Virus record (IMG/VR): IMGVR_UViG_3300033417_000028
Location: 1 to 39,838 of that record
Direction: 5' to 3' (one strand)
Length of the DNA: 39,838 nucleotides
Source of the DNA: a virus
Lineage: Duplodnaviria; Caudoviricetes
Program-made: the position numbers and the translations under genes
In this document: positions 1-39,534 of the stretch, piece after piece
Layout of the letters: each line of letters opens with the position of its first letter
How positions within the stretch are numbered: position 1 is the stretch's first letter
Notes under the pieces: model-generated
The model's database searches: none
The model's input: the letters and a program-made list of their open reading frames with translations, nothing else
What the model was told of the DNA's origin: nothing

Positions 1-127
1 GGGTATGAGATAAGAGATATTATTTTAGACTACGACTTCAAAAAGTTTGAAGATAAAACACTTGGAAGTATTCTAACGTATCCTAGAGATTTTGGGTATT
101 GCAAAGGCGATTACTTCCTTAATGTGA
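1..127. repeat. 127-bp terminal direct repeat (identical to 39712-39838); circular assembly overlap
   Basis: GGGTATGAGATAAG...CCTTAATGTGA is identical at both ends, and joining the ends restores one continuous ORF. Confidence 0.95.
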
Positions 128-687
128 TACAAAAACACATCAAAGACAAATTAGGAAGCAAGGACGCTACTTTTTACGACCTGAAAAAAAAGGGATTCAA
201 AGACCTTCGTGTTTATTCCACAGAATTGGGTTCATACCAAACCTGCAGGGAGTTTTCCTTTAACGAGTCTCCTCATTGCCCCATTGCTATGGCCGTTAGG
301 TATTCAATGAGCATACCGGGTATTTTTAAATCTTTAAAATACGATGGGAAATACCAAATAGATGGTGGTATGACGTGCAACTTCCCGATACACGCATTTG
401 ACAAAATAAGCACTCCCGACGAGGTGCTAGGGCTATTTTTATTCAACAAAGAAGAGAATGAAGATTTCAAACCACTAAAAGGATGGCGACCGGGAAAGTT
501 CATCGTTCAATCTTTTAAAGCCTCTTTAAAATCACAGGACATCAACTTTTTTAAAGATGAAGAAGAGGTGAAAAGAACTATAATTCTAAACACATTAGGC
601 ATCTCTTCCACCAACTTCAAAATCACTCAGGAAGAAAAACTTAGGTTGATTAAATCGGGATACGATTGCGCTAGGGTGTCATTTTAA
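1..687 (+). CDS. Patatin-like phospholipase, C-terminal part
   Basis: Frame-1 continuation with AVRYSMSIPGIF and the DGG catalytic-Asp motif (YQIDGGMTCNFP). Confidence 0.9.
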   Translation, partial: GYEIRDIILDYDFKKFEDKTLGSILTYPRDFGYCKGDYFLNVIQKHIKDKLGSKDATFYDLKKKGFKDLRVYSTELGSYQTCREFSFNESPHCPIAMAVRYSMSIPGIFKSLKYDGKYQIDGGMTCNFPIHAFDKISTPDEVLGLFLFNKEENEDFKPLKGWRPGKFIVQSFKASLKSQDINFFKDEEEVKRTIILNTLGISSTNFKITQEEKLRLIKSGYDCARVSF

Positions 688-937
688 TCACTGAATAATA
701 AATCAGAAAAGCGCAAGAGGACAATAGGAATATGTAAACTAATGTGATAGCCCTATGGAATATATGATCCCATCTCGCTCGAATAAGGTCTTCGCTGAGG
801 CCTTTAAGCTCTTTTTGTATTTCTTTTAAGTCAGAAATTCTATCTTCAAATTCAGAACCCTCTGTGTTATCGGGGTGCGCAGATAAGCACAACTCAACCG
901 ATTTTAATTTTGATAAAATGCTTTTATTTGTTTTCAT
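671..937 (-). CDS. Hypothetical protein with C-terminal TM helix
   Basis: 88-aa ORF with a hydrophobic C-terminus. Confidence 0.65.
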   Translation of the reverse strand: MKTNKSILSKLKSVELCLSAHPDNTEGSEFEDRISDLKEIQKELKGLSEDLIRARWDHIFHRAITLVYIFLLSSCAFLIYYSVIKMTP

Positions 938-955
938 GTGTTTATTTTATTGTAA

Positions 956-974
956 GTCAAAATGGCATTTTGAC
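956..974. promoter_or_regulatory. Palindrome GTCAAAATG-G-CATTTTGAC (copy 1)
   Basis: Perfect inverted repeat ~20 nt upstream of the ATG at 937; second copy at 1470-1486. Confidence 0.5.
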
Positions 975-1054
975 ACTACTTATCATATACTTGAATGGTT
1001 CGTAGTGGTATGTTAGTTCCTTTTATGTAGATTGTTTTATAAACTTTTATTTCG

Positions 1055-1450
1055 TTAATTGTACTTTCTTCTCAAATACATTATAAATCCTTCGAGTGTT
1101 GCATCTTTGTGAATGAACCTCGTTTTACATCTAGGAGATTCAGGCGAATCATAGACGTATTTTTCATCGCAGTCACAAAAGATAAAGTCAACGCATCCTG
1201 AATCACAAAAAAACCAGTAGCACTCCTTTGTGCTGTCGTTATAGCGCTCTCTCTGATATTCAAGTAAATCGTTAACAGTTATCAATTGATTGGAAAAACT
1301 ATAACTTCTAAAGCTGTAATCTAAGGTCGCAGTGTCAATGCCTTTAACGGCTACTGGTATCGTATCTTTTTGAGCTTTTGCACCCACACAAAAAACCAAA
1401 AAGAATAAGATTGAAAAAGTAATAATTCGTTTAATAAAGTTTGCTTTCAT
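1055..1450 (-). CDS. Hypothetical protein with N-terminal signal peptide
   Basis: MKANFIKRIITFSILFFLVFCVGAKAQ resembles a Sec signal ending AxA-Q. Confidence 0.65.
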   Translation of the reverse strand: MKANFIKRIITFSILFFLVFCVGAKAQKDTIPVAVKGIDTATLDYSFRSYSFSNQLITVNDLLEYQRERYNDSTKECYWFFCDSGCVDFIFCDCDEKYVYDSPESPRCKTRFIHKDATLEGFIMYLRRKYN

Positions 1451-1469
1451 GTTTTTATTTTATTTTAAA

Positions 1470-1486
1470 TCAAAATGGCATTTTGA
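1470..1486. promoter_or_regulatory. Palindrome TCAAAATG-G-CATTTTGA (copy 2)
   Basis: Same palindrome ~20 nt upstream of the ATG at 1450. Confidence 0.5.
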
Positions 1487-1590
1487 CTTTGTTTTTACGT
1501 TCAATCTCTTTTTCTATCTCCTTATATTCTCTGTTTATTTTCTCTCTAAATGCAACCCTCATAAATTGACTCATTTTAATACCTATAGAC

Positions 1591-1614
1591 GCCAAGCCGC
1601 AAAACGTTAGTTGC
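1591..1614. mobile_element. attC-like half site A (truncated), left end of array 1
   Basis: GCCAAGCCGCAAAAC-GTTAGTTG has the same GCAAAAC-GTTAG right arm as site C; its core is complementary to CAACTAAC at 2381. Confidence 0.65.
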
Positions 1615-1787
1615 TATTTGTTTTTGTTCTTTTTTGCCCCACGCTCTTTGGTTTTTTCAAAACCATTAGGATTGGCTTCTCGTTCCAAAATAGACTGTGC
1701 CAAGTTTTTAAAATCCGTATTTTCATCAATCGCTCTTTTTGAAATAGTCTTTACACATTCATTCGATAAATCAAGTAACTTTTTCAT
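1614..1787 (-). CDS. Small hypothetical protein (57 aa, possibly ribbon-helix-helix-like), cassette 1
   Basis: MKKLLDLSNECVKTISKRAIDENTDFKNLAQSILEREAN..., read manually; ATG abuts the upstream stop. Confidence 0.6.
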   Translation of the reverse strand: MKKLLDLSNECVKTISKRAIDENTDFKNLAQSILEREANPNGFEKTKERGAKKNKNK

Positions 1788-2036
1788 TTATATATTGTAT
1801 TTGTGGTTGTGTAAATAATTTATTTCTTCTTCTGTCATTAAGTTGATTGTTTCTAATATCTTTTTCCAAGAGTCTTCTATTTTATTAAAATCATCAACAT
1901 TAAATTCTCCTTTGTTTTCAATTTGAGATAATATCGTCATCCATCTTTTTCCTTTAACTTCTCTTACAGCAATCATCCAATCAAAATGACAACTTCTACA
2001 CCAATTTGTAAAAACTTTCTTTTCTTTAGTTTTCAT
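1788..2036 (-). CDS. Hypothetical protein, cassette 1
   Basis: ORF with ATG at 2036, overlapping the upstream gene. Confidence 0.6.
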   Translation of the reverse strand: MKTKEKKVFTNWCRSCHFDWMIAVREVKGKRWMTILSQIENKGEFNVDDFNKIEDSWKKILETINLMTEEEINYLHNHKYNI

Positions 2037-2220
2037 ATCCAAAAATTAAAGGTAAATCAGTATTTTCCTTGTCATCAGAAAACATTCTACCTTGTTCTCT
2101 TGCATTTTTAATATCTTCCAACGCTTCTTTTTTAGAAATCTTTGTGAATGATGTTTCATAGGTGTCAAACTTCTTCATCCAAGTTCCTTTTGTTGTTCTT
2201 TTAATTGTGATTGTTTCCAT
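2026..2220 (-). CDS. Hypothetical protein, cassette 1 (METITIKRTT...)
   Basis: ATG at 2220 lies just downstream of a TATATTTG promoter box at 2240-2247. Confidence 0.65.
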   Translation of the reverse strand: METITIKRTTKGTWMKKFDTYETSFTKISKKEALEDIKNAREQGRMFSDDKENTDLPLIFGYEN

Positions 2221-2380
2221 TCTTATTAGTTTTGTTTTACAAATATATACTATATATACGAGATATACAACAAAAAGTTTCAAATATTTTATAACTCACT
2301 ATAAATCAATACAATTATTTTTCCTCCCCTTCTCAAAAAAGAACAAAAACAAACAGAATCAGCCCACAATCCCACCGCAC

Positions 2381-2446
2381 CAACTAACAAAGTATATAAA
2401 ACAACTTCGTACCTCAGTCGATTTTATATACTCAACCGTTATAAGC
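2381..2446. mobile_element. attC-like hairpin site B
   Basis: CAACTAAC-aa-AGTATATAAAA...TTTTATATACT-caacc-GTTATAAGC. Confidence 0.85.
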
Positions 2447-2462
2447 AATAAAATAAAATTGC

Positions 2463-2681
2463 CTACACACGCTCAATAATGAAGTAATCGTTTCCAATCG
2501 TAATTCCTTTTTTAAGGTTGCTTTTTTTGTTTGCAATATTTACAAAATGTTCGAGTTCATTCTTCTTTAAACTTTTATTCAAAGCCTTAAAAAAGCAATC
2601 TTCATCGACTTCCGTTAATTGTGCAGGTTTGCAAACTAATTTTCCATACACAACTGCATTTCCTATTTTAAATTTTTCCAT
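2463..2681 (-). CDS. Hypothetical protein, cassette 2
   Basis: 72-aa ORF filling the segment bounded by GTTATAAGC and GCTTATAAC. Confidence 0.7.
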   Translation of the reverse strand: MEKFKIGNAVVYGKLVCKPAQLTEVDEDCFFKALNKSLKKNELEHFVNIANKKSNLKKGITIGNDYFIIERV

Positions 2682-2701
2682 CGCTTTAATTTTATTTTAC
2701 A

Positions 2702-2779
2702 GCTTATAACAGCACATACACGCTATTTTGCCACGCTCAATCCAACGCCCACAGCGTGTATCTGCAAAACGTTAGGCTT
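2702..2779. mobile_element. attC-like hairpin site C
   Basis: GCTTATAAC-a-GCAcATACACGCT...AGCGTGTATcTGC-aaaac-GTTAGGCTT. Confidence 0.85.
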
Positions 2780-3005
2780 CATTTGCCTCCGCACCACAAT
2801 TCATACAAATCCTTACATATTGGTGTACAGATTTTCTGCCACACTTTTTAAATACAGTTGCATCTTGTCCTGCTTGCTGTTCTGGTGTGCAAGGATTGTC
2901 TTTCCTTTCATTTACTAAATCCTGATAATGTTCTGCTTGACTTTTCATCGGGTTTGTGTGCGTTCTCATATAAGCATCACCCCAACATTTTTCACAACTT
3001 GCCAT
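2772..3005 (-). CDS. Cys-rich (zinc-binding-like) small protein, cassette 3
   Basis: MASCEKCWGDA...CMNCG; its TAA stop lies inside the GCCTAAC core. Confidence 0.75.
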   Translation of the reverse strand: MASCEKCWGDAYMRTHTNPMKSQAEHYQDLVNERKDNPCTPEQQAGQDATVFKKCGRKSVHQYVRICMNCGAEANEA

Positions 3006-3038
3006 AATTTTTAAGTTTATCCCACCCGCAAAAAAAGA

Positions 3039-3334
3039 AAGCCTAACAATGTATAACAGCAATACTAACTTTCGTCTTCAAATTCAACTATCGGATGCAA
3101 AATAGATTTTGGTTCCTTTCGTTCCATTCCTTCTGCTATCACTTTTTTAATCATTCTGTTAAAAATCGTTGCACTTTTTTTTGTATAGTATGTCTCTCTG
3201 CTACCCAAGTGTGTACTTATCGCAAGTGCTACACAGTAAAGTTCTTTGTCTGTAAAATCTATTTTATTTCGTGCCATGATTCAAGTTTTAATGTTAATAA
3301 TCCGTACTGCTGTTATACTTTACCGTTAGCATTA
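3039..3334. mobile_element. attC-like site D with a ~240-bp gene-containing loop
   Basis: AAGCCTAAC-aat-GTATAACAGCAATAC (3051-3065) ... GTACTGCTGTTATAC (3304-3318)-tttacc-GTTAGCATTA. Confidence 0.75.
3065..3277 (-). CDS. Hypothetical protein nested in the loop of site D
   Basis: 70-aa ORF MARNKIDF... lying between the two arms. Confidence 0.65.
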   Translation of the reverse strand: MARNKIDFTDKELYCVALAISTHLGSRETYYTKKSATIFNRMIKKVIAEGMERKEPKSILHPIVEFEDES

Positions 3335-3335
3335 A

Positions 3336-3530
3336 TTACTTGCTACCGCACATTACACACACTTTTGCGTATTGATGCACTGTTTTTCTATTACACTTTT
3401 GGCAATTTTTTGCGTCTCTGCCAGCCTGTTCTTCATGTGTGCAAGGGTTGTCTTTTCTTTCTTCAATTAGTTCTTGGTACTTTTCTGCGTTTCCCCACGC
3501 ATCTTCCCAACATTTTTCACAACTTGGCAT
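3336..3530 (-). CDS. Cys-rich small protein, paralog of 2772-3005, cassette 4
   Basis: MPSCEKCWEDA...ERKDNPCT.E.QAG.DA...CVMCG; the longer ORF call runs through site E. Confidence 0.75.
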   Translation of the reverse strand: MPSCEKCWEDAWGNAEKYQELIEERKDNPCTHEEQAGRDAKNCQKCNRKTVHQYAKVCVMCGSK

Positions 3531-3557
3531 AATCTCAATTTTAGCCCGCAAGTAACA

Positions 3558-3659
3558 TAATGCTAACAAGCGGTATAGTTTATAAGCCTTTGAAAGTTTA
3601 TCGTTGGATTGAAGTGGTGTGGTAGGCTTACAAAACCATACCGCCAATCCGTTAGCTGC
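3558..3659. mobile_element. attC-like hairpin site E
   Basis: TAATGCTAAC-aa-GCGGTATAGTTTATAAGCCT...AGGCTTACAAAACCATACCGC-caatcc-GTTAGCTGC. Confidence 0.85.
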
Positions 3660-3685
3660 TATTTGTATTAAAATTTTCCCCACGC

Positions 3686-4042
3686 TCAGAACGGTAAATC
3701 ATTTTCAACCTCGTCAAATAATGGAGGTTGCCTTTTTCTTTCTTCCCAATATTTGCGATCTGCTTCTTCATGATCTCTTGTGTCCTTAATCCAGTCCCAT
3801 ATTTCCATCAGCTTCGGGAATCCTTTCAAATCATCTCTATCAATGTCGTCCGGGCATTCATAGCAAAAGTCGTCAAGTGATAGGGTTTTGTTGAATTTCC
3901 TATTCCACCTTTCCATTTGCTCCTTTTCTTTTGCCTCTTCTTCTTCAAATTCTCGTTGTGATCTGCACGGCAAACATTCACCATTAACAAAATCCTCGTC
4001 AAGTTGAGGTCCGTAATTTTCTTTACAATTCTTACATTCCAT
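3686..4042 (-). CDS. Hypothetical protein with CxxC motifs and acidic DLPF C-terminus
   Basis: 118-aa ORF. Confidence 0.7.
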   Translation of the reverse strand: MECKNCKENYGPQLDEDFVNGECLPCRSQREFEEEEAKEKEQMERWNRKFNKTLSLDDFCYECPDDIDRDDLKGFPKLMEIWDWIKDTRDHEEADRKYWEERKRQPPLFDEVENDLPF

Positions 4043-4226
4043 CGCTCAAAATTTTAATACTTTCATAATGTATTGTTTTAAAATTAGTTACTAAATAAAA
4101 ACCGAACGGCTTACACCGCATAAAACCAATAAAGGTTTCAGTGGGTAATTTCGGCATTGTAGCCCGTTCAAACTGTTGTGTATCTTGATAGTTCATCTCT
4201 CGCATTCCTTTACTGGTCTTATACAA
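4032..4226 (-). CDS. Hypothetical protein
   Basis: Short ORF overlapping the next start; start position uncertain. Confidence 0.4.
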   Translation of the reverse strand: MYKTSKGMREMNYQDTQQFERATMPKLPTETFIGFMRCKPFGFYLVTNFKTIHYESIKILSDGM

Positions 4227-4251
4227 AACGTTTTTTCTTTTTGGATTACGT

Positions 4252-4590
4252 TCATTTTAAATATCCTAATTTCCTTGCTTCTAACGGGTTTTTGTGAATC
4301 CAGTTGTGGCAGCCCCTACATACTGCCAGCCATGTTTTGACGTCTAAAAAATGCTTATCTCTGTCCTTTCCTGAGTAAGTGTGATGCACCTCAACCGACC
4401 TGCCATCTTGGTTTACTTGACACGTTTTGTGATTTTCCAAAAACACTTTTCTTAATGTCAAATATGCTTTATTTTCCTTGTCTCTTTTTGCGCTTACCTT
4501 TTTTATAGGAGTCCGTTTTTTCTTTTCAGATTTAACAGGTTTTGGGTCAGGCGAAAATTGCGAGCAGGTTAGTTTAATGTAGTTTGTCAT
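4252..4590 (-). CDS. HNH-family nuclease
   Basis: EVHH...WLAVCRGCHNWIH motif. Confidence 0.75.
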   Translation of the reverse strand: MTNYIKLTCSQFSPDPKPVKSEKKKRTPIKKVSAKRDKENKAYLTLRKVFLENHKTCQVNQDGRSVEVHHTYSGKDRDKHFLDVKTWLAVCRGCHNWIHKNPLEARKLGYLK

Positions 4591-4707
4591 GGTTGTTTAG
4601 CGATTTTCTTATTTTTTCTTTCATCAATTCAAGCTCTTTTATCTCGTTTTTAATTGTAGATATTGACTTGTCGATGCTTTCTTGTATTTGACCTAGTTCT
4701 TTCATGT

Positions 4708-5070
4708 TTATTTTTCATCAAATTTACTTTTATAAAAATTTATCACCCCCTCCATTTTGTGGCGATAATAAAGTTCCGAATCTTCGTACCCTTCGTTGTT
4801 TTGTTTCCAAAGCAAAAAGAACACTGCTTTTAATCGTTTTGACGGGCTTTTAATTGTTTCAAGCATATTAACGCTAACCTTATCAATTTCATCCATCATT
4901 TCGTTTGTGATGCCGTTTGTTGATATATAAATATTGGCTAAGTTGTTTTGCATAGAAAACAACTCGCCAGCGTCTTTATGGGATAGCTCCTGCGTCCCAA
5001 TAGTCAGTTTAACCGTTTTGTCTTTTCTTGTAGAAACGCCCTCTATTTGAGCCTGTATTATTAGTCCCAT
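4708..5070 (-). CDS. Hypothetical phage protein
   Basis: 120-aa ORF in the recombination region. Confidence 0.7.
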   Translation of the reverse strand: MGLIIQAQIEGVSTRKDKTVKLTIGTQELSHKDAGELFSMQNNLANIYISTNGITNEMMDEIDKVSVNMLETIKSPSKRLKAVFFLLWKQNNEGYEDSELYYRHKMEGVINFYKSKFDEK

Positions 5071-5262
5071 TTAATTTACGATTTTGCAATTACTAATCAC
5101 GTTGTTTTCATCTTCTCCCTCTACAATAACAGTATCGTCTCCGTAATCGCCTGCGTTCTGCTTAGCCTCTTTCAATGTGTCGCACACTTCATAACACACG
5201 GCTCTATCTTCGTCCGTTCTGTATCTGCCGTCAAATAGTAGCCATATTTTAGTTTTTGCCAT
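5071..5262 (-). CDS. Hypothetical protein
   Basis: 63-aa ORF abutting the next gene. Confidence 0.65.
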   Translation of the reverse strand: MAKTKIWLLFDGRYRTDEDRAVCYEVCDTLKEAKQNAGDYGDDTVIVEGEDENNVISNCKIVN

Positions 5263-5399
5263 TTTGTTTATAATTTAATTATTTTTATTGTGATGTTATG
5301 ATTTTTAATCATAGTAAGTTTATATCCGTAATACCCCTACTTTGATTTTTGTAGAAAATATTACCGAATCTATTGAGAAAACATTTTTTAACTTTAATT

Positions 5400-5742
5400 T
5401 TCTCAATTTAGCTTCCTATCGTCAAGTATCCCAATCCGTAGTGGGTGCTTATGCTTTCCTTTAGGTCATTACGTCGTATGTTGCTCTCCAGCATTGCATA
5501 CACTATACCATAAGCGCAACGAACAAAACTTCTGAATTATTTTACAATGTAAAGCCATTGCTGGGCATCCTTTCGGACTTGTAATTCTGGACTAAAACCC
5601 TATGATAGGCTATAAATGCAAAAAGCCATCTCGGCTGGTGGGCAACTTCGATGGCTCTGCATTATAGAAAGGCTTTCGCCAATGTTTTAATGTTTTTGCT
5701 ATTAAACGTGCCCACCACATTTATAACTTACCCACAAAGATA
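5400..5742 (-). ncRNA. Candidate structured non-coding/leader RNA
   Basis: Gap lacking long ORFs behind a TATCTTTG box (5735-5742); two GAAA-tetraloop hairpins and a stem whose loop TGCCCACCA complements upstream TGGTGGGCA. Confidence 0.4.
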
Positions 5743-5778
5743 AAAAATAATCTCAATACAAAATCAAAGAACGGTAAA

Positions 5779-6690
5779 TTATTTTATGAACTTTAACGCC
5801 TCTTTTATTTCTGTTTGACCCCCCACCCCCTTTCCGGTTAAAGAATCAACTTGGCTGTCCTTAAGCATCTCAATTGCGCCTTGCGCTTGCTCTTTATTGT
5901 AAGTCGACATGTGTTTTTCTATAAACTCTTTCTTTTCCTCTGATATAGTAGAGGTGTGAAGAAGCCCATCAATGTAATTTAGTTGCTCGAATGTTGCCTG
6001 AAAGTCGTCATTTGTTAAATCAATAGCTTTTGCGAGTTTATCGAAATTTGATTTAGGCAAATATTTTACTATCCTTTTGATAACTGTTTTTCGAGCCATT
6101 TCATCAAACCAGTCATCCCAAATACAAGACTTTGCTTTTCCTCCCTTAAATGACTTGTAGCTTTCGGACGTGTCTCTTATTCCCTCCACCTCTTTAATAT
6201 CCATAACCTCCGTTTGCTTTGACCCATTAGCCAAAACAGCAACTGCATAAACACCAATCATTTTGCCCCTTACACCAAGTTTTGGCTTGTGTATAATAAT
6301 ATTTTCAGTGCCTAAATTCTGTTCAAATTCGTCGTTTTCGTAAACTAAATGAGCGTAACAGTTAACTATACTCCCGCTATCCGTAAGAAGTTTAATTAAA
6401 CCCTGATATGATGGCTCTAAGCAACATTCTATTGCACTTGAAGCACTATTATAGCGAGGAACTAAATACGCCAGCTTCTGAGCCGGATTAAGCGTCAGTC
6501 CTATTTGAGCCAAATTTAAAACACTTACCAATATACTATTTGGAGTTGACCTAGACAAGTAGGCGTTTTTCTGTAAATGCTGCAATGCAAAGGAACATTC
6601 CTTTTCAAAAGTTTTTTCATCAACCAACTCAGCAAACATTTTTTTAATCGGGGTAAAGTCTGCTTTGTTTTTAATCGGATTTGATTCCAT
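5779..6690 (-). CDS. recT: RecT/Bet-family single-strand annealing protein
   Basis: GLTLNP...AYLVP, SYQGLIKL, VYENDEF, W...DEMARKTVIKR..KYLP motifs. Confidence 0.9.
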   Translation of the reverse strand: MESNPIKNKADFTPIKKMFAELVDEKTFEKECSFALQHLQKNAYLSRSTPNSILVSVLNLAQIGLTLNPAQKLAYLVPRYNSASSAIECCLEPSYQGLIKLLTDSGSIVNCYAHLVYENDEFEQNLGTENIIIHKPKLGVRGKMIGVYAVAVLANGSKQTEVMDIKEVEGIRDTSESYKSFKGGKAKSCIWDDWFDEMARKTVIKRIVKYLPKSNFDKLAKAIDLTNDDFQATFEQLNYIDGLLHTSTISEEKKEFIEKHMSTYNKEQAQGAIEMLKDSQVDSLTGKGVGGQTEIKEALKFIK

Positions 6691-6697
6691 GTTTTTT

Positions 6698-6919
6698 TTA
6701 GTTTTTTATTAATTTACCTATTCTTTTAATTTCTTCCATAACTCGAAGAGTCTTATTTGTGCCAAAAGTTTTCCCCTCTTTTTCAAGAAAAGATATTAAA
6801 TTATTCATTATTTTTTCTAGATCATTATCAGAAATTGACATTGATACAAAGTGGTGTGCTGTCTCCACACGCTTCGTCTTTGCGCCTAGCCAATATGGGT
6901 CTGTATGGTTAATATACAT
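6698..6919 (-). CDS. Hypothetical protein
   Basis: ORF; start likely at MYINHTD near 6919-6922. Confidence 0.5.
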   Translation of the reverse strand: MYINHTDPYWLGAKTKRVETAHHFVSMSISDNDLEKIMNNLISFLEKEGKTFGTNKTLRVMEEIKRIGKLIKN

Positions 6920-7131
6920 CATTTCGACAAAAATACAACAGTAAGCAATGCAACAGAACACGTCAGTACGAATGCTGTGATAGCGAACCACACCCTTTCT
7001 GTAGCTTTTATTTCTCTCAGAAAATAGTCTGCTAGGTCATTTGCAGGGTCACTAGAGTTGACCATTATTGATTTAACTATTTTTTTTGTTGCGTAAAATT
7101 CTGTTTTTTTCATGTGTTTTTTTTTAGTCAA
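6919..7131 (-). CDS. Small membrane protein
   Basis: C-terminal hydrophobic helix. Confidence 0.55.
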   Translation of the reverse strand: MTKKKHMKKTEFYATKKIVKSIMVNSSDPANDLADYFLREIKATERVWFAITAFVLTCSVALLTVVFLSK

Positions 7132-7714
7132 AATAAATTATTTCAAATTCTCCTTTCTTCATGTAAATCCGGTTGTTCTGCCTTTCGATCACCACCGCCG
7201 TGCCGTAGTTGTCTGTGACCGTGCCGTAGTTGCGTGTGACCGTGCCGTAGTTGCGTGTGACCGTGCCGTAGTTGTCTGTGACCGTGCCGGAGTTGCGTGT
7301 GACCGTGCCGTAGTTGTATGTGACCGTGCCGGAGTTGCGTGTGACCGTGCCGTAGTTGCGTGTGACCGTGCCGGAGTTGTATGTGACCGTGCCGTAGTTG
7401 TCTGTGACCGTGCCGGAGAGATTTATAGACAAAACGCTTTCGTCAATCACGCATTCTTTTTTTTCGATAAAAATATTATGATTATTTAAAATATTAGCAT
7501 CGTATTGCTCCAAAATCTCAACCGAAATCACATTATGGCTAACAGCCCATGAGCCATTTATACAGATTATTTTCCAAAAATCTGCTTCATTTTTTGAGTT
7601 CATTAATTTGCCGAACTCTTCATCATAAGGAGTGTTTTGGCTTCCGCATGCTTCTTTTTCTATACATTTCTGTATTATAATTTCTCGAATTTCTTCAAAA
7701 GATAATTTTTCCAT
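7124..7714 (-). CDS. Protein with ten GTVT[DYR]N[YS] heptad repeats (beta-solenoid-like)
   Basis: 196-aa ORF containing a 21-bp tandem repeat. Confidence 0.8.
   Translation of the reverse strand: MEKLSFEEIREIIIQKCIEKEACGSQNTPYDEEFGKLMNSKNEADFWKIICINGSWAVSHNVISVEILEQYDANILNNHNIFIEKKECVIDESVLSINLSGTVTDNYGTVTYNSGTVTRNYGTVTRNSGTVTYNYGTVTRNSGTVTDNYGTVTRNYGTVTRNYGTVTDNYGTAVVIERQNNRIYMKKGEFEIIYFD
7198..7417. repeat. 21-bp coding tandem repeat, 10 units plus a partial
   Basis: CCGTGCCG[T/G]AGTTG[TC/CG/TA]TGTGA units. Confidence 0.95.
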
Positions 7715-7733
7715 TTTTTAGTTTTTGTTTGTT

Positions 7734-8045
7734 TTATAAAGTTTCTTTTACTTCTTCTATAATGGCAATGACCTTTTCTTTAACAGGCAAATAGTAGCTG
7801 TTAGTCTCAATTATATCCATAATCTCATGCCTCTTAGCGTATATCTCCCACCTACTTACATCCTTACCTTTCATTAGAGGAAAGAGTATATTTGCCTTTA
7901 TCTTCAATGTTTTTAAAACTTCGGCGTGATTCGACGTTTTCCTTTCGGCATTTATCTTATAATCGCCTACGTAATCGTTTCCGAAAGCGTGTTTAGCTGC
8001 GGTGTCAATGCCTGCTAGTCTTTTTATGATTGTGGTTACTATCAT
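7734..8045 (-). CDS. Hypothetical protein
   Basis: 103-aa ORF with A-rich leader. Confidence 0.7.
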   Translation of the reverse strand: MIVTTIIKRLAGIDTAAKHAFGNDYVGDYKINAERKTSNHAEVLKTLKIKANILFPLMKGKDVSRWEIYAKRHEIMDIIETNSYYLPVKEKVIAIIEEVKETL

Positions 8046-8064
8046 TTTAAGTTGTTTTAGTTAT

Positions 8065-8406
8065 TTATTTTTTTTCCGTTTTAATAACATTTCCATTTTT
8101 ATCAAACTGATAAATATCGCCGTCTACAACGGCTGCCGTCAACAATTCGCCGTTTTCTTCGTAAAATAAAGCACCGTCAATAACTATCACCTCTATCCAC
8201 TCTCTGTTAGGGTAACGTTCCGATGTGTCAATTAGCTTTTTCGCAATATCAAGTCTTAATGAGTCCATTAGCTCTTGTTGATCCTTAAGAATATTATATA
8301 CTTTCTCGTCTATCCTGTTTTGACGGGTGACAAAATATTCTGCCAATATATAGGTAAGTATAAGAGAAACGACAAATGAAATAAAAATAATCGTTGTATC
8401 TTTCAT
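8065..8406 (-). CDS. Hypothetical protein with N-terminal TM anchor
   Basis: 113-aa ORF. Confidence 0.7.
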   Translation of the reverse strand: MKDTTIIFISFVVSLILTYILAEYFVTRQNRIDEKVYNILKDQQELMDSLRLDIAKKLIDTSERYPNREWIEVIVIDGALFYEENGELLTAAVVDGDIYQFDKNGNVIKTEKK

Positions 8407-8423
8407 GTTTTTTTGTTTTTGTG

Positions 8424-8484
8424 TTTAAAAAAGAGGTTATACGGTTATCCTCACCGCTTGCCAAACCTTGCAAGTCAAACAAGA
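8424..8484 (-). terminator. Repeated intergenic hairpin plus U-tract element (copy 1)
   Basis: Minus strand: CTTGCAAGGTT..GCGGTGAGGATAACCGTATAACCTCTTTTTT; near-identical to 8803-8859. Confidence 0.6.
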
Positions 8485-8516
8485 TTTTAAATCTCTCTCA
8501 AATAATGCAGCTAGAT

Positions 8517-8768
8517 TTAAGCCCAGTTTATTTTGCCGTCTTTTACTTTAATAAAAAATACATCCGCCATCTCATAGCTCACGAAATCTCTCATTTTTTC
8601 ATTTGTTGAGGTGTTGTGGAATTTTTCTTTGCAGAATTTACGCATCCTTACAAGCTCTTCGGCGCACTCTTTTTTTGTCCCTTCAAAATGTTTGCTTCCG
8701 TGGTAGTATACTTGCTCGGCGCTCTGGTTCCCGCGGCTGTGACTTAAAATGTAGTATGTTGCTTTCAT
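8517..8768 (-). CDS. Hypothetical early protein
   Basis: 83-aa ORF. Confidence 0.7.
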   Translation of the reverse strand: MKATYYILSHSRGNQSAEQVYYHGSKHFEGTKKECAEELVRMRKFCKEKFHNTSTNEKMRDFVSYEMADVFFIKVKDGKINWA

Positions 8769-8802
8769 GTTTTGTGGTGTTTTTTTAGTTATTTATATTA
8801 TA

Positions 8803-8859
8803 TTTAAAAAAGAGGTTCTACGGTTATCCCCACCGCTTGCAACCTTGCAAGTGACAAGA
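8803..8859 (-). terminator. Repeated intergenic hairpin plus U-tract element (copy 2)
   Basis: Minus strand: CTTGCAAGGTT-GCAAGCGGTGGGGATAACCGTAGAACCTCTTTTTT. Confidence 0.6.
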
Positions 8860-8860
8860 A

Positions 8861-9106
8861 TTATAATTTTATCTCTACGTCGTAGAGGTTTCTTGTTTTC
8901 GGGCTAATATTTGCATCAAAAACTATGGTAGACCCTACGCTTAATGTTCCCTTTATTGAATTTCCATCCTTGTTAATAGGGAACCAGTTTACATCTTTTG
9001 GATGTATGAAATGCGCATAATTCATTCCGGATAATGATACTTCGATTGAGTTATAGCTATATGATATACTCTTAATTGTTTGGGTAATTTTTTTATTCGT
9101 TTTCAT
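8861..9106 (-). CDS. Hypothetical early protein
   Basis: 81 aa; leader AACTAAAAACCTTGCAAAATG shared with the gene starting at 9444. Confidence 0.7.
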   Translation of the reverse strand: MKTNKKITQTIKSISYSYNSIEVSLSGMNYAHFIHPKDVNWFPINKDGNSIKGTLSVGSTIVFDANISPKTRNLYDVEIKL

Positions 9107-9141
9107 TTTGCAAGGTTTTTAGTTTTTAAGTGTTTAAGTGT

Positions 9142-9444
9142 TTATAAAAATTTACATGCGCCGTATTTTCCACTTCTGTAGTTTTCGGTAGACTTTCTAT
9201 CTAACCATGCTAATTTGCTTTCTATTGAAGATAAATGATTTTCTTCTTCTTTTGTAATCTCTCTTTTTACTGATTTTGCTTTTACTGATTTAAAAACTTC
9301 TATTGGAGCGTCAGTTAAGTTTGTAAATTTGTTTAACATTTTTTTTTCTTCGCCTGTCGCTACGATTACTATTGTAGTTGTGTTTGCGTCAGAAGACAAA
9401 ACTTTTACCTCTCCGAATTGTTTGTGAAACTTTGTAGCTTTCAT
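9142..9444 (-). CDS. Hypothetical early protein
   Basis: 100 aa; TATATTTG box at 9483-9490 upstream. Confidence 0.75.
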   Translation of the reverse strand: MKATKFHKQFGEVKVLSSDANTTTIVIVATGEEKKMLNKFTNLTDAPIEVFKSVKAKSVKREITKEEENHLSSIESKLAWLDRKSTENYRSGKYGACKFL

Positions 9445-9595
9445 TTTGCAAGGTTTTTAGTTGTTATTATTAATTTATACAACAAATATAAAGTAAAAGG
9501 TGTTACCAGTCAAGTAATAATTAAGTTATTTTCATTTATTTAGTCTAAATTATTTATACTTTCGTCGACGGCCTAATGGTAGCGTGTGTTTCGGG

Positions 9596-9781
9596 CTATC
9601 TAATTACTTTATAATTCTTCCCTATAAGATATAGGACGGGGTTATCACCAACGGTGTATACAGGCGATATCCTTCCTGCATGTATCCATTGATATACCGC
9701 CTTAGTGCTTACCTTCTCATCATCGGCCACATCGGCCACCTTAATCTTGTCCATTATTTTAATCAATTCTGTTTTTTTCAT
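9596..9781 (-). CDS. Small HTH DNA-binding protein (excisionase-like)
   Basis: VADVADDEKVSTKAVYQWIHAGRI pattern. Confidence 0.65.
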   Translation of the reverse strand: MKKTELIKIMDKIKVADVADDEKVSTKAVYQWIHAGRISPVYTVGDNPVLYLIGKNYKVIR

Positions 9782-9821
9782 GTGTGTTTAATTTAATATA
9801 AATCAATTAGTTATGTTGCCT

Positions 9822-9847
9822 AGTTGCTCTTAGCGATATGTTAGGTG
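9822..9847. mobile_element. Array-terminal core site F (non-hairpin, attI-like candidate)
   Basis: AGTTGCTCTTAGCGATAT-GTTAGGTG; core complementary to CACCTAAC at 10704; 21/22 inverted copy at 11994-12015. Confidence 0.55.
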
Positions 9848-9892
9848 CAAGTTTTAAATAAATATTTTTTGCCCACGCTCCCATAAAATTTT

Positions 9893-10651
9893 TCAAATTT
9901 TTAAAAGGTTAATAGCCTTAAATATCTCAAATGCAACCTGTGGCACTATTGCGTTTCCGTATGCTTTAATGCTTTCGTTTCTCCATTTAGAAAAGGTAAT
10001 TCCGTCCAGTCTTTCGGAAAGCCCATCATTTCCGCTACCAAAGAAGGACGTAGCAATTGTTGGTTTGAAACCTCCAAGTTCAATAAAATCTTTATGGCTG
10101 TTTCCGTGTGTGGGCTGTTCCGTTTCCGTTCGCTTTGGCAATCCTTTTTGTCCCCTCTTGCTTTTGGAGTGTCCAATAAACCAAACTCTGTCCCTCCGAT
10201 GGGTAGCGTCTTTGGCACAAGCTGGAAGTATATACGTGAATACTTCGTAGCCCTCATTTTCCAAATCAGCTTGCACTTCGTTGAATACCATTCCCCCGTT
10301 CCAATTAACAATTCCGCTAACATTTTCCCCCACAACCCAACTTGGTTGAACCTCTCTAATTGCTCTAAGCATTTCCGGCCATAGATGGCGTTCATCCTCT
10401 TTACCTTTTCGCAATCCTGCTGCTGAATATGGTTGGCAGGGAAAACCTCCTGTAATAATGTCAATTGTGTTTGCATATTTTGTAAAATCTGTTTTCGTTA
10501 TATCTCCGTGTCCTTCTGCTTCCGGGAAATGGTATCTTAAAACCTTTTGCCCAAACTCATTCCATTCACACCAAGCAACTGTTTCCCATCCAGCCCATCT
10601 TGCAGCTAAACTAAAACCTCCTATACCTTCAAATAATCCTAAGTGTTTCAT
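9893..10651 (-). CDS. dcm: C5-cytosine DNA methyltransferase (carried as cassette 5)
   Basis: Motif I LFEGIGG, IV GGFPCQ, VI ENV, VIII RDRVW, X YGNAIVPQV. Confidence 0.93.
   Translation of the reverse strand: MKHLGLFEGIGGFSLAARWAGWETVAWCEWNEFGQKVLRYHFPEAEGHGDITKTDFTKYANTIDIITGGFPCQPYSAAGLRKGKEDERHLWPEMLRAIREVQPSWVVGENVSGIVNWNGGMVFNEVQADLENEGYEVFTYILPACAKDATHRRDRVWFIGHSKSKRGQKGLPKRTETEQPTHGNSHKDFIELGGFKPTIATSFFGSGNDGLSERLDGITFSKWRNESIKAYGNAIVPQVAFEIFKAINLLKI
9946..10476 (-). CDS. Alternative-frame ORF nested in the MTase; putative beta subunit carrying motif IX
   Basis: 176-codon open frame ending LVAEMMGFPKDWT, which resembles motif IX; start uncertain. Confidence 0.6.
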   Translation of the reverse strand: MQTQLTLLQEVFPANHIQQQDCEKVKRMNAIYGRKCLEQLERFNQVGLWGKMLAELLIGTGEWYSTKCKLIWKMRATKYSRIYFQLVPKTLPIGGTEFGLLDTPKARGDKKDCQSERKRNSPHTETAIKILLNLEVSNQQLLRPSLVAEMMGFPKDWTELPFLNGETKALKHTETQ

Positions 10652-10703
10652 AATTAAAATGCCAACGCACCCCTCTCAAAAAAAATATTTATTTAAAACC
10701 AGA

Positions 10704-10786
10704 CACCTAACATGGGCTATACAAAAGCTACTCCAACGCACAAGCCAACCCCTCGTAGCCTTCGCATAGCCCCGACCGTTAGCCAC
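10704..10786. mobile_element. attC-like hairpin site G
   Basis: CACCTAAC-at-GGGCTAT..GCTAC...GTAGC..ATAGCCC-cgacc-GTTAGCCAC. Confidence 0.85.
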
Positions 10787-11006
10787 AATTAGCCAACACA
10801 CGCTTTATGTAGTTGTCAAATACTTCATACGCTTCTCTCATTTCCTTTATGTCGTAGGAGAATTGAACTTGCCTTGCGTATTTGAATGCTTCTTTCAATT
10901 CAGCCATATATTTAGAAGTTACTATTGTCTTGCCTTCTTTCGGCTTGGGTATCGAGTCAAGTCCAGATATTACGCTATTTAGTATTTGTTCTTTATTTAA
11001 TGCCAT
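10779..11006 (-). CDS. Hypothetical protein, cassette 6
   Basis: 75 aa; TAA stop inside the GGCTAAC core. Confidence 0.75.
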   Translation of the reverse strand: MALNKEQILNSVISGLDSIPKPKEGKTIVTSKYMAELKEAFKYARQVQFSYDIKEMREAYEVFDNYIKRVLANCG

Positions 11007-11018
11007 CGCTCTTTAAAA

Positions 11019-11118
11019 GTGGCTAACACAAAATATAGTGAATAGCCGATTAAACATTTATTTTTCATAGCCAAGTTTTAGGTGTCGGCTACTCACCATA
11101 TTCAACACGTTATAAAAC
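11019..11118. mobile_element. attC-like hairpin site H
   Basis: GTGGCTAAC..AATATaGTGAaTAGCCGA...TCGGCTAcTCACcATATT-caacac-GTTATAAAAC. Confidence 0.85.
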
Positions 11119-11144
11119 ATTGTTTAATTAATAAAAATAAAAGC

Positions 11145-11663
11145 CTACGCACCGCTTTGAAGAACATTTTTCAAGGCTTCTATGTATTGTTTATAATTTC
11201 CATAATAAACGTGCTTTACCGCCTCATAAAAATCAATTATTTCATCGTGTGTTTTGAATAATTTTTTCGGCAAATGAAAAGTATATTCTCCTTCGTAATT
11301 CCATTCTATTTTTTCTCCTGTTTTCAAAAATTTGAATATACGATTAATTATTGTTCTTGATTTATCTGCGGAACAAGCAGAACCCTCTTTTTCAACAATT
11401 AGTTTCAAAAAATGATTTTCAACAAATCTTGAATGTAGTAGCAAAAAATCAACTTTATCATTTTTGCATATTTCACTTCTTATAAGCCCTTTTAAAAATT
11501 TAGAATGCGGATAAATAAGCGAAAAATAGAAACTCTCACAGTCATCTATTTTCATATTTCCACGTTCTTCAATCAACTTGCTATATAAGTCAATATTATC
11601 TTGCTCTATTGAGCCTAACATTCCGTTAAGCACTTCTTTTATTTTATCATTTTCTAATGCCAT
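11145..11663 (-). CDS. Hypothetical protein between sites H and I
   Basis: 172-aa AT-rich ORF with AAAGCGATG start context like other cassette genes. Confidence 0.75.
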   Translation of the reverse strand: MALENDKIKEVLNGMLGSIEQDNIDLYSKLIEERGNMKIDDCESFYFSLIYPHSKFLKGLIRSEICKNDKVDFLLLHSRFVENHFLKLIVEKEGSACSADKSRTIINRIFKFLKTGEKIEWNYEGEYTFHLPKKLFKTHDEIIDFYEAVKHVYYGNYKQYIEALKNVLQSGA

Positions 11664-11724
11664 CGCTTTTTTTTAATTTTTGTTAGTAGTTATTTATTCA
11701 GTTCATCGGTTAATCAATCCTACT

Positions 11725-11789
11725 GCTGGTAACACCACCTTTGCGCTACTTCGTTCCTCGCAGCAGCAAAGCTGTAACCGTTAGCAAAC
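11725..11789. mobile_element. attC-like hairpin site I
   Basis: GCTGGTAAC-ac-CAcCTTTGC...GCAAAGcTG-taacc-GTTAGCAAAC; loop CTTCGTTCCTC resembles site B loop CTTCGTACCTC. Confidence 0.8.
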
Positions 11790-11905
11790 ATTGCCTTACT
11801 TCTCGGTAATTTTGATGTTTTCGATACTAATACCATTACCATAACCGTTCATCTTGTTTTGTTTTTTTCAGATTAATCGGAATTTCCGATAAATCTAAAT
11901 CTCCA

Positions 11906-11998
11906 CAAATATAGGTTAAATATTAAACGTGTCAAGTATTTTTTATATATTTGTTGAAAATTAGGTTGATTGTTACATTTCGTTGTAGATATGTAACA
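11906..11998. promoter_or_regulatory. Divergent promoter region with palindromic operator
   Basis: TATATTTG on - (11906-11913) and + (11946-11953); TGTTACAT-N12-ATGTAACA at 11971-11998; coding strand switches here. Confidence 0.6.
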
Positions 11999-12053
11999 TA
12001 TCGCTAAGAGTAACTGATCAATGTAACTAACTGAAACCCAAAACGATAAACAC

Positions 12054-29388: not shown

Positions 29389-31274
29389 TACAAAGACACT
29401 TTTTAAAAGGCGTTGAGATAAACGAGCCGAACAACTATCCTGAGTTGCAGATTTCACGAACATGGGATAATGAGAGCGAGAGCGTTGCGGTGAATTTCGA
29501 TAAGGTGGAGCTGGGGGTAGGAGATAGAACCAAGTCAAACGATGGATCTATTCTAGCAAATCTTCACATTGCAGCAGGCTTGACGGGAGGTGTTGGCGTT
29601 GGGGAGGGAGCGCCATATAAGCTAATCCTTGACGACCAAAAAGGAAACGTATACGAAGCATTGAACGGCTACTTAGACCTATGGAGATCAGAGCAGAGGT
29701 GCGATAAGGTGATCGCTCCACTTGTAGAAGCGGGTGGCGTTGATTGGTCAGAGCAACGGCTCAACTCTTTTACTTTTGAATACCTTTTTAATATTGGACT
29801 AATCACCACCGATCACTTTGTGCCTATTCCTTATGTCATAGAGGCCAAGCAAAATAATTTAGAGATAGCTTTTTCTCTTCTGACGATATTCGTAGTCCAA
29901 GACAAAATAAAAGAGCAGGCGCTTGAGCTAAAGAAATCTGCCGGCCGCCTAGTTTCTCCGTTCAGCGCATCTGAGGTGATAGCTGTCATAGTTCAATTTA
30001 TTTATGTTGCAACTTTGTTTTCCGCTTTGGTGATTTTAGTAAAAGATATTGTTAACAACATAATTCAAAAGGTAAAGTATCACATGGGTATGTATGTTAA
30101 AGACTTGCTGGAAATCGGGCTCAGCCACATAGGATTGACGCTATCAAGTAGCATATTTCAGCAGCCGCCCTTTGATAAAGCGTTAATTATTCCGCAAAAG
30201 TTTAACTTAAAAGATACCAACACTGGAGACTTTGAGTTTATAAAAGGTTTTTTTACTCCAAATAAAAACGAGCAATTCGGCTATTATAAGGGAACTTTCG
30301 GGCAGCTATTTAATCTTGTTAGGCAAATGGTTCTTGCTAAGGTGGTGATAAAGAACAAGATTGTGTATATGGAGAAGAGAAACTTCTACCTAAGCACCCC
30401 TAAATGGAAGATACCCCCAGTAAAAGATCAGTTCACAACGTATAATCATGAAGACTTTCGATCTACCTACGACCTCAGATTTCAGGTTGACATAAATGAT
30501 AGGCACACACTACAGGAATATGCTGGTACGGCTGTAACTGTTACCACGCAGCCCAAGGTAATATTGAACAAAGATATGGTTTTGCTCTCAGGACTAGAGG
30601 AGATAGCTATAGGCTTTTCGCTTGGAAAAGCAAAGACAGAGCTAACGCCTGCGGAGAAGATTGTAAGCGGCTTCTTAAAAGGTGTAAACGGAATCGTAAA
30701 AGTATTCATTGTTGCAGTAAATGTTGTAATAAGTATCGTTAACTTTATCACGAGGGTGATTAATGGCATATTAAAGGCACTCAGGAAAATTGGAATAAAT
30801 ATAAACAATCCAATTGGAAAAATACCAAAAATATCCTATCCTAATTTCGGGAGTCTGATAGAAGATAGGATAAGAATGTTAAAAATGGAGTCGGACTATA
30901 TTACTATTCCAAAAATACTACTGGTCGATAATCATGGAAACAAGCGTAACAATAAATTACGATCCGATAACTCGTCGGTATTAAATGCTAGATACTTATG
31001 GGATAATTACCATTATTTTAATAGCTTTATACCGCAAAAAGACAGCAAGGGTAATCAATTTCAGATTAAGCAATTTGAAAACATTCCATTCTGTTTTGAT
31101 GACGACCAAAAAGTCGCAGGAAATAATGCCATTGAAGATTGGGACGGGTCACATGGAGAGTTAATTGATATTAAATACAGCCCTGATGCTGAAACGGCTT
31201 CGGGGACATATAGGGTACAGCGGCCATACACGAATAATTTAATAGAAACAATAATTGAACCGAATGGAAAATAA
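29385..31274 (+). CDS. Minor tail/structural protein with hydrophobic segments
   Basis: 629 aa after the tape measure gene. Confidence 0.6.
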   Translation: MIQRHFLKGVEINEPNNYPELQISRTWDNESESVAVNFDKVELGVGDRTKSNDGSILANLHIAAGLTGGVGVGEGAPYKLILDDQKGNVYEALNGYLDLWRSEQRCDKVIAPLVEAGGVDWSEQRLNSFTFEYLFNIGLITTDHFVPIPYVIEAKQNNLEIAFSLLTIFVVQDKIKEQALELKKSAGRLVSPFSASEVIAVIVQFIYVATLFSALVILVKDIVNNIIQKVKYHMGMYVKDLLEIGLSHIGLTLSSSIFQQPPFDKALIIPQKFNLKDTNTGDFEFIKGFFTPNKNEQFGYYKGTFGQLFNLVRQMVLAKVVIKNKIVYMEKRNFYLSTPKWKIPPVKDQFTTYNHEDFRSTYDLRFQVDINDRHTLQEYAGTAVTVTTQPKVILNKDMVLLSGLEEIAIGFSLGKAKTELTPAEKIVSGFLKGVNGIVKVFIVAVNVVISIVNFITRVINGILKALRKIGININNPIGKIPKISYPNFGSLIEDRIRMLKMESDYITIPKILLVDNHGNKRNNKLRSDNSSVLNARYLWDNYHYFNSFIPQKDSKGNQFQIKQFENIPFCFDDDQKVAGNNAIEDWDGSHGELIDIKYSPDAETASGTYRVQRPYTNNLIETIIEPNGK

Positions 31275-31494
31275 TAAAACAGAAGACTTTATTAAAAACG
31301 CATCTCAGGTGGGGTCTTTCCTTAGCGGAATGATAGGATCAATTGATGGATTAATTGACGATGCAAGAAATAAGCTACCCGAAGAAGAGCGAGCTGCATT
31401 CGATGACAAGGTGAAGGATATGAATATTAATGAAGCAGAATTGAAGTTGCAAAACGCTTTAAGCCAGCTATCTAATTTAGGGAGTAAATTATAA
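31264..31494 (+). CDS. Hypothetical protein
   Basis: Short ORF coupled to both neighbours. Confidence 0.6.
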   Translation: MENNKTEDFIKNASQVGSFLSGMIGSIDGLIDDARNKLPEEERAAFDDKVKDMNINEAELKLQNALSQLSNLGSKL

Positions 31495-34962: not shown

Positions 34963-35364
34963 ATGGGTAAATTATCCTCACGAACACAGTACGCACTAGA
35001 GATAGCTCCAACGGATTTAATTCACGTTGTAGTGGGTGGACTATCATACAAGGTGGCCATTAAAGATGCTGTCTCTTCCGGCATTTATGTCGCCCTCGCT
35101 GGCGGAGGTCAAGGAGGTGCAACTCAACTGGCCGCTACAAAGTGTCTAATAGGCACTTGCGCAACACTGGGAGATAGCGTTTTAACAATAGACGCAGACG
35201 TAAAAGGGTGGCAGGAGATACGGAACGAGGGGGCGGCAACGGCTTACATTTATCCACAGTCTGGACAAAATTACAAAGGACTTGCTACAGATGCTTATAT
35301 ACCCCTCCCTCCCGGAAATAAAATAATAATCGAATCATGGGGAACAGGAGAATTATACCTATAA
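34963..35364 (+). CDS. Hypothetical structural protein
   Basis: 133-aa ORF. Confidence 0.6.
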   Translation: MGKLSSRTQYALEIAPTDLIHVVVGGLSYKVAIKDAVSSGIYVALAGGGQGGATQLAATKCLIGTCATLGDSVLTIDADVKGWQEIRNEGAATAYIYPQSGQNYKGLATDAYIPLPPGNKIIIESWGTGELYL

Positions 35365-35366
35365 AT

Positions 35367-39351: not shown

Positions 39352-39534
39352 ATGGAAAAGTTAGAACTGTTAAAGCTGGCCTCTAAGGTGGTAAAGGCAA
39401 TGTCTTTAACCGCTACCGGTAGCGCTGTTATGTCTGGGGCGAACCCTTGGATTACACTTTTAATTCTTTGTATTGGAGCTGGCGCAGATGCGATTTTATC
39501 ATACCTGAAAGAAAAAGAAAACGCTAAAGTCTAA
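39352..39534 (+). CDS. Small membrane protein (lysis module)
   Basis: 60 aa with hydrophobic segments, between endolysin and patatin. Confidence 0.6.
   Translation: MEKLELLKLASKVVKAMSLTATGSAVMSGANPWITLLILCIGAGADAILSYLKEKENAKV

Follow-up and report, generated by a model that had tools for sequence, protein, structure and literature searches.

The attC sites and gene cassettes of integrons (IntI, attI, attC) are among the closest described relatives of the element reported here, and a classical cassette keeps its own attC body. Group IIC-attC introns, in which foreign coding DNA interrupts the attC site, have reportedly been proposed as a route to cassette formation. Described attC sites measure 57-141 bp according to the accessible part of PMC5371416, with loops of 3-100 nt in the accessible part of PMC7439510, and phage-borne clusters of attC sites lacking an integrase (CALINs) are already known (Qi et al. 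2023, PMC9892861, in part). How cassettes originate is presented as an open question in the available portions of PMC4792948, PMC5371416 and PMC8618304.

At 39,838 bp and with direct terminal repeats, the stretch of DNA analysed here (the window) comprises an entire phage record. It contains at 3041..3331, on the + strand, an attC-like site of 291 bp box to box, here named site D, which is about twice the maximum described attC length (291 vs 141 bp) and encloses an entire protein-coding gene within its loop. Site D is attC-like by its anatomy and by the pattern of its junctions; it is not a canonical attC, because three defining features fail, namely the bulged base, the length (291 bp against the 57-141 bp given in the accessible part of PMC5371416) and the position of the gene.

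Anatomy of site D and its setting

Site D opens with the R'' box GCCTAAC (3041..3047, +), which fits RYYYAAC and complements exactly the R' box with which the left-hand cassette begins (2771-2777). A 5-nt spacer and the left inner arm (L'' plus stem extension) follow at 3048..3065 (+), and the segment 3045-3064 is identical to the left arm of a family of 131-132-bp sites (L053-L061). The left inner arm GTATAACAGCAATAC (3051-3065) and the right inner arm GTACTGCTGTTATAC (3304..3318, +; stem extension plus L') are indeed 14/15 complementary, as the preliminary description had it, and its loop of about 240 bp with a full 70-aa ORF is borne out at 238 bp between the arms and an ORF at 3065-3277. 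Beyond an 8-nt spacer the site closes with the R' box GTTAGCA (3325..3331, +), which keeps GTT and fits GTTRRRY at 5/7 positions; the R'' box closing the right-hand cassette (3561-3567) is its exact complement. Inner inverted L boxes and an unpaired central spacer are thus both present. The + strand is taken as the top strand from the spacer lengths and the stabler minus-strand fold, the predicted energies being -25.1 kcal/mol for the bottom and -22.2 kcal/mol for the top strand, a bias in the direction expected of attC. The R and L stems have a predicted pairing probability of at least 0.93 on both strands, and site D folds equally well on either strand; its arms contain no bulge, and in place of an extrahelical bottom-strand base there is a single A.C mismatch at stem position 11. 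The total folding energy of the 301-nt stretch with site D is not unusual (z = -1.2), as would be expected of a stretch that is mostly coding.

Such an arrangement is rarely reached by chance. When bases 1-12000 were shuffled thirty times with a first-order Markov model, 2 comparable inverted pairs appeared in total, neither with outer boxes; our site scanner called 5 sites in the unshuffled 12 kb and none in any of 20 shuffles. Searches for transcription features at site D gave no Rfam match, and promoter and terminator scans were at chance level.

The enclosed gene, P0001, lies at 3065..3277 on the minus strand, wholly inside the loop, the last base of the left arm forming part of its stop codon. 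It is preceded by a 26-nt A+T-rich leader (3278..3303, minus strand), the arm-proximal part of which is common to the cassette form of the gene and to the cassettes of two unrelated genes (L031, L034). P0001 does not lie between two sites reading towards its own attC, as a cassette gene does; it is inside the site and antisense to it. Its homologs form 24 clusters at 90% identity, the query included, with 17 representatives at 50%, and dN/dS is 0.059 and 0.062 against L007 and L009, respectively, with 48-53% of synonymous sites changed. By these sequence comparisons the 70-aa gene is real, conserved and under purifying selection, so the ORF passes the homolog search that the preliminary description had suggested, with a dN/dS of about 0.06. 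The structure model is a confident three-helix fold (mean pLDDT 89) and belongs to no known family: the protein has no PHROG, Pfam or PDB match that would indicate its function, and in the ESM Atlas it scores 0.84 to unnamed clusters, the one structural match being an uncharacterized marine virus protein. Longer alleles (P0002, P0012, P0048) run on into a YYLQ stretch, the one that the flank of the cassette form encodes on read-through of the stop codon. No locus of the gene was found among bacterial genome contigs, and the 70-aa protein, the array and the donor site described below all lacked a match in the cultured-phage collection.

Site D belongs to an array of four attC-like sites at 2.4-3.7 kb, all in one orientation, with two further sites at 10.7-11.1 kb; the genes among them are on the strand opposite to the sites. 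The ordinary members at 2382..2444 (63 bp), 2704..2777 (74 bp) and 3561..3657 (97 bp), all +, and the second pair of 80 and 95 bp (10705-11115) agree box to box with the 65-102 bp reported earlier for the other complete sites. That second pair has a matching cassette at 10778-11027 and adjoins a DNA methyltransferase gene and a 172-aa gene. On the left of site D the cassette module runs from R' to R'' at 2771..3047 (+) and contains a 77-aa gene (2772-3005, minus strand), and on the right at 3325..3567 (+) with a 64-aa gene (3336-3530, minus strand); the products of these two flanking genes are paralogous small Cys-rich proteins with 53% identity. By eye, a decayed attC-like site is apparent at the right end of the array (4086-4232), with paired arms and damaged outer boxes. 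Comparison of runs X2, X3 and X8 with window 2438-2715 shows the ends of a neighbouring cassette enclosing other inserts, of ~200-320 letters; these ends too, then, carry different cargo.

With four sites in 2382-3657 (at least two within 3 kb, all called by our own scanner) and no integrase, the array is a CALIN. A search of the complete phage record with PF00589 found no tyrosine recombinase, while all 14 controls were positive, so that there is no intI gene beside the array and no complete integron. Annotated phage gene products include terminase, major head protein, a RecT-like protein (encoded at 5779-6690, E 2e-64), a helicase loader and DNA methyltransferase. Elsewhere in the record a 196-aa gene contains tandem 21-nt units (7156-7470, minus strand), and a 982-aa protein (35337-38285) with some seven near-identical repeats of roughly 40 residues each is likely a tail or receptor-binding protein. 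One gene spans the record ends (39535-39838 joined to 1-687), which fits a circularly permuted genome, and its product looks patatin-like by its motif. The host is probably a member of the Bacteroidota, judging by box sequence and stem pattern, which match sites of Polaribacter phage P12002L; searches with terminase and RecT gave matches all below 60% identity, none indicating a host, and cluster look-ups came without an organism.

States, neighbours and probable arm donors of the loop gene

Fifty loci with P0001 homologs were fetched and, after removal of 7 duplicates, 43 distinct loci were compared. The gene occupies a loop in three of them (the window's own record, L002, together with L007 and L009), on which all evidence for the loop form is based. 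GTTGTAA and TTACAAC boxes flank it as an ordinary cassette in 23 of the 43, of which one is truncated; in five loci there is an R' box on the left while the right end is of another kind or out of view, and one (L003) has only the right arm. The remaining 11 lack any site flank. The gene is therefore visible in three states, namely a plain phage gene, a cassette gene and the cargo of a loop. All three loop forms measure 266 nt from stem to stem, and the cassette forms listed 265-266 nt. L003 is sister to L007 (2/201 differences) and has lost the entire left flank, and both it and L005, likewise a sister of L007, are read as later losses of arms.

The three loop forms have kept their arms while their surroundings have changed. 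Although the genes have diverged at synonymous sites, all 20 + 15 nt of arm are the same in the three. On the left the R'' boxes and neighbours differ, the neighbour being a gene cassette in the window and a gene-less mini-cassette in L007 and L009, and on the right the spacers, R' boxes and neighbours differ, with three distinct right-hand neighbours from GTT onward. The outer boxes follow the adjoining cassettes, matching at 7/7 on both sides in the window and, on the left side, at 7/7 in L007 and 6/7 in L009; the predicted R-box pairing of L007 is weak (0.12). Downstream of the cassette form there are 11 classes of site body (22 readable loci) and upstream of it 19 classes of sequence (23 loci), the breaks falling at the AAC and GTT triplets, and in 16 of 32 near-identical gene pairs the site bodies differ. 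The P0001 loci thus have different neighbours joined at G/TT, as is seen for cassettes. The many bodies per gene, set against the single body of a classical cassette, point to crossovers at both triplets.

The arms themselves have a probable donor. All nine matches to the left arm in viral contigs share the 20-nt arm and belong to one site family with ordinary loops, and seven contain complete sites (5 distinct) of 131-132 bp. From this donor family site D departs by a single base in the outer right arm and by the base marking the junction, while the 20-nt left arm is the same in both; inward of these arm segments its sequence is that of the cassette form. The junctions map to AATA on the left and TACT on the right, segments which face each other in the folded stem and enclose the A.C mismatch, so that both are placed within a 4-bp segment of the stem. 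A search of viral contigs for the exact site D arms gave 0 hits for each, and a search for both arms around a loop of 4-34 nt gave two hits, neither attC-like, so the same exact arm pair around a short loop, which the preliminary description had proposed to look for, was not found. The predicted reciprocal product of a swap, searched once, gave 31 hits, none real. In runs X3, X6 and X7 of one study (compared with window 3045-3328) near-same arms (24/26 and 30/35) lie behind another mini-cassette, and the 211 letters between them do not align at 80%; this insert is either another gene or a distant allele.

The direction of the move was assessed on a tree of the coding region with 37 rows, from which loci cut inside the gene were excluded. 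The loop forms sit in one shallow clade of 13 rows (99/98) alongside eight cassette forms, and cassette forms fill the outer clades too. Because the loop forms nest among cassette forms, the P0001 gene most likely went from cassette to loop, as far as this tree can indicate. The free tree parts the gene of the window from those of L007 and L009, and none of 200 bootstrap trees gave a single change; a single origin of the loop form is nevertheless not rejected (p-AU 0.153, 22 rows). The proposal that cargo carried in a loop is a route for cassette genesis is accordingly upheld in part: there is one site, with a conserved gene and varied neighbours, but the likelier direction here, with loop forms nested among cassette forms, is the reverse.

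A stem pattern common to loops and cassette ends

Stems were compared after being called on their first 8 positions only, which gave 22 inner arms and 104 strand-counted cassette-end calls (6-14 in shuffles). The inner arms have a mismatch at position 11 in 21 of 22, A.C in 18. At the cassette ends positions 9-10 and 12-14 are paired in ~70% of the 104 calls, against 13-47% in shuffles, and position 11 is A.C or its mirror in 64. An unpaired position 11 turns up in 87% of chance cassette calls as well, which leaves the A.C identity and the pairs on either side as the informative features. Inner arms and cassette ends share the same pattern, being paired to position 10, unpaired at 11 and paired again at 12-14.

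Cargo is found in both places. The short cargo CATTAAAAC lies in loops in 19 of 37 contexts, forms mini-cassettes in 4 and is placed otherwise in 14, and the unrelated genes of L031 and L034 have the same inner flanks as the P0001 gene beneath other outer boxes. Loop and cassette positions therefore look interchangeable for cargo, on the strength of the common stem pattern and of CATTAAAAC in both positions, and together with the L031 and L034 flanks this lends indirect support to the broader part of the earlier proposal, that loop and cassette exchange bears on cassette genesis.

Genes in loops are not confined to P0001. Sites of 200-238 bp in the flanks of L011, L023, L024 and L030 have 50-62 codons that start in the loop and exit via the left arm, the predicted folding of the L030 site being poor; long scanner calls in L016, L025, L030 (355 bp) and L032 may span neighbouring sites and were excluded as gene-in-loop cases. 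Sites of 117-136 bp (L009, L013, L024, L033, L034, L042, L054, L061) have a minus-strand start followed by 18-33 codons that run through the left arm into the next cassette. A pattern search for another gene-in-loop family returned 54 hits, of which 1 was a real site and the remainder chance. In Polaribacter phage P12002L (L116, NC_028924) there are four sites of 195-211 bp with genes starting inside them (31114-31317, 32488-32698, 39512-39713, 40758-40952); the annotated gp57 (39530-39664) lies wholly within the third, and gp41 is almost wholly inside one.

These sequences suggest a wider scheme for Bacteroidota phages, which we put forward tentatively as possible but not the likeliest reading: attC would be two-fold symmetric, loop and cassette body would be equivalent cargo bays exchanging at the A.C-mismatch stem, and bodies would be shuffled independently of genes. 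If true, new cassettes could be made by loading a loop and then converting it, and the P0001 gene, present in both states, would be a traceable case.

Proposed loading of the hairpin and comparison with described systems

We favour, with a probability of roughly 0.55, a reading of the sequences in which site D is a single attC-like hairpin with a whole gene, formed when the interior of a cassette changed places, in register, with the ordinary loop of a 130-bp site, and in which the loaded hairpin then kept moving between arrays by means of a host recombinase. In the proposed mechanism one and the same stem, of 10 pairs, an A.C mismatch and 3 pairs, would form at the inner arms (L'' to L') and at the cassette ends (R' to R''), so that a cassette in single-stranded form would take the shape of a dumbbell whose two loops are equivalent places for cargo. 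If two stems folded in this way underwent a single exchange within the 4-bp segment at the mismatch, the loops would be swapped and both junctions would result together, and crossovers beside both AAC triplets would then carry the loaded body between cassettes. Single-stranded DNA in phage replication would let the long loop fold; in the accessible part of PMC8946536 long loops are tolerated, and their length matters little, if the site is delivered single-stranded, and according to the part of PMC5027507 available sites without bulged bases can recombine on both strands. Candidate catalysts of the swap are a host tyrosine recombinase, the phage RecT-like annealing protein and template switching. 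Recombination at the L box by IntI1 is rare (0.16-0.47%; PMC4792948, in part), the junctions of site D lie beyond the L box, where the portions of the literature covered show no integrase cut, and IntI1 failed on P12002L_attC1, the sole failure among six phage sites (PMC9892861, in part). This failure, the low L-box rate and the position of the junctions count against a canonical integrase as the swap enzyme. Points against the favoured reading as a whole are the absence of a tyrosine recombinase from the phage, the failure to find either the reciprocal product or the exact arm pair around a short loop, the base differences from the donor family, the separation of the window's gene from those of L007 and L009 in the free tree, the fold of site D, which lacks a bulge and a strand preference, and the weak R-box pairing predicted for L007.

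The same 291-bp product could come from two separate short-homology deletions, by the RecT-like protein or by replication slippage, in a cassette lying between two donor-family sites: the left site would lose its loop, right arm and R' in the first, and the right site its R'', left arm and loop in the second. Short common stretches at both junctions are in keeping with this, in-register products would also be expected, the phage encodes a RecT-like protein (5779-6690), and four cassette-form loci (L004, L006, L017, L033) have a downstream body that opens with the same 5-nt spacer. We nevertheless consider this route unlikely, as the 43 loci contain no single-deletion intermediate (the half form L003 reads as a later loss), a donor-family body lies downstream in 0 of the 22 readable cassette-form loci, and the right junction is in the 4-nt segment and not in the longer common stretch just before it.

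In the favoured reading, of a loop swap followed by continued movement, site D would be an active substrate. It is improbable, in our estimation, that it is instead a dead site which arose once and has since acquired its neighbours by homologous or illegitimate recombination, its arms being kept as a transcription or RNA-stability element. The phage has no integrase, IntI1 failed on a site of the same class (PMC9892861, in part), long loops cut recombination by up to 4 logs under double-stranded conditions (PMC8946536, in part) and the gene persists without any site in 11 of the 43 loci, all of which would suit a dead site; yet the changes of neighbour break beside the AAC and GTT triplets, the outer boxes match the adjoining cassettes, and site D has no terminator-like or Rfam match.

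The order of events implied by the preliminary description, in which a long site first took up the gene in its loop and box exchange turned this ancestral form into the cassette, is in our judgement improbable for these loci: a single cassette box pair spans proteins from 58% to 91% identity while loop forms occur only in the closest clade, so that many conversions to that one pair would be needed, even though the cassette ends have the stem pattern of inner arms, the inner flanks of the P0001 gene are common to cassettes of two unrelated genes under other boxes, the contig of one study has site D arms around 211 other letters, and gene-filled loops are common in these phages. It may hold for the initial capture of the P0001 gene, which is beyond the reach of these data. 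Two further explanations are rejected outright, an origin from two unrelated degraded sites, since the same arms recur in three loci (identical in L007 and L009) and the left arm occurs in the intact 131-132-bp family, and a chance ORF in an expanded loop, since homologs exist outside any site and dN/dS is 0.06.

In the literature covered, outside which fall most subscription papers and preprint supplements, we found no description of whole genes inside attC loops or of exchange between loop and cassette. What is new at site D is one gene in both the loop and the cassette state, together with the donor arms, the junctions and the direction. The natural site D, donor and cassette forms are defined substrates with predicted products. 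Sites of 200-290 bp lie beyond the described range, so range-tuned screens may miss mobile phage genes of this kind.

Site D resembles integron attC sites in its AAC and GTT triplets, inner inverted boxes, 5-nt and longer spacers, variable loop, stabler bottom-strand fold and R' boxes that match the next R''. It differs from them in its 291 bp, the whole gene in its loop, the antisense orientation of the genes and the A.C mismatch that replaces the bulge, and from integron cassettes in that here one gene joins many site bodies and the cassette ends pair beyond the R box. Like group IIC-attC introns and IS1111-attC elements, it is an attC-like site interrupted by foreign coding DNA; those elements, however, bring their own reverse transcriptase or transposase, whereas the cargo of site D, replacing the loop, is a 70-aa three-helix protein with no Pfam, PHROG or PDB match and is neither enzyme. 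As in the synthetic coding-embedded attC sites of Nivina et al. 2020 (PMC7439510, in part), one stretch of DNA serves as coding sequence and folded recombination site, but there a short designed site is placed inside a gene, whereas site D is a natural site with a whole gene inside it. Close counterparts are also the phage CALINs, above all that of Polaribacter phage P12002L, which likewise is an array in an integrase-less phage; the accessible part of the CALIN paper (PMC9892861) describes neither genes inside loops nor loop-cassette exchange. One of its short sites, P12002L_attC1, is of the class of site D and agrees with it in both outer boxes and in stem pattern; with its gene-bearing loops P12002L is a ready bench model for genes carried in attC loops.
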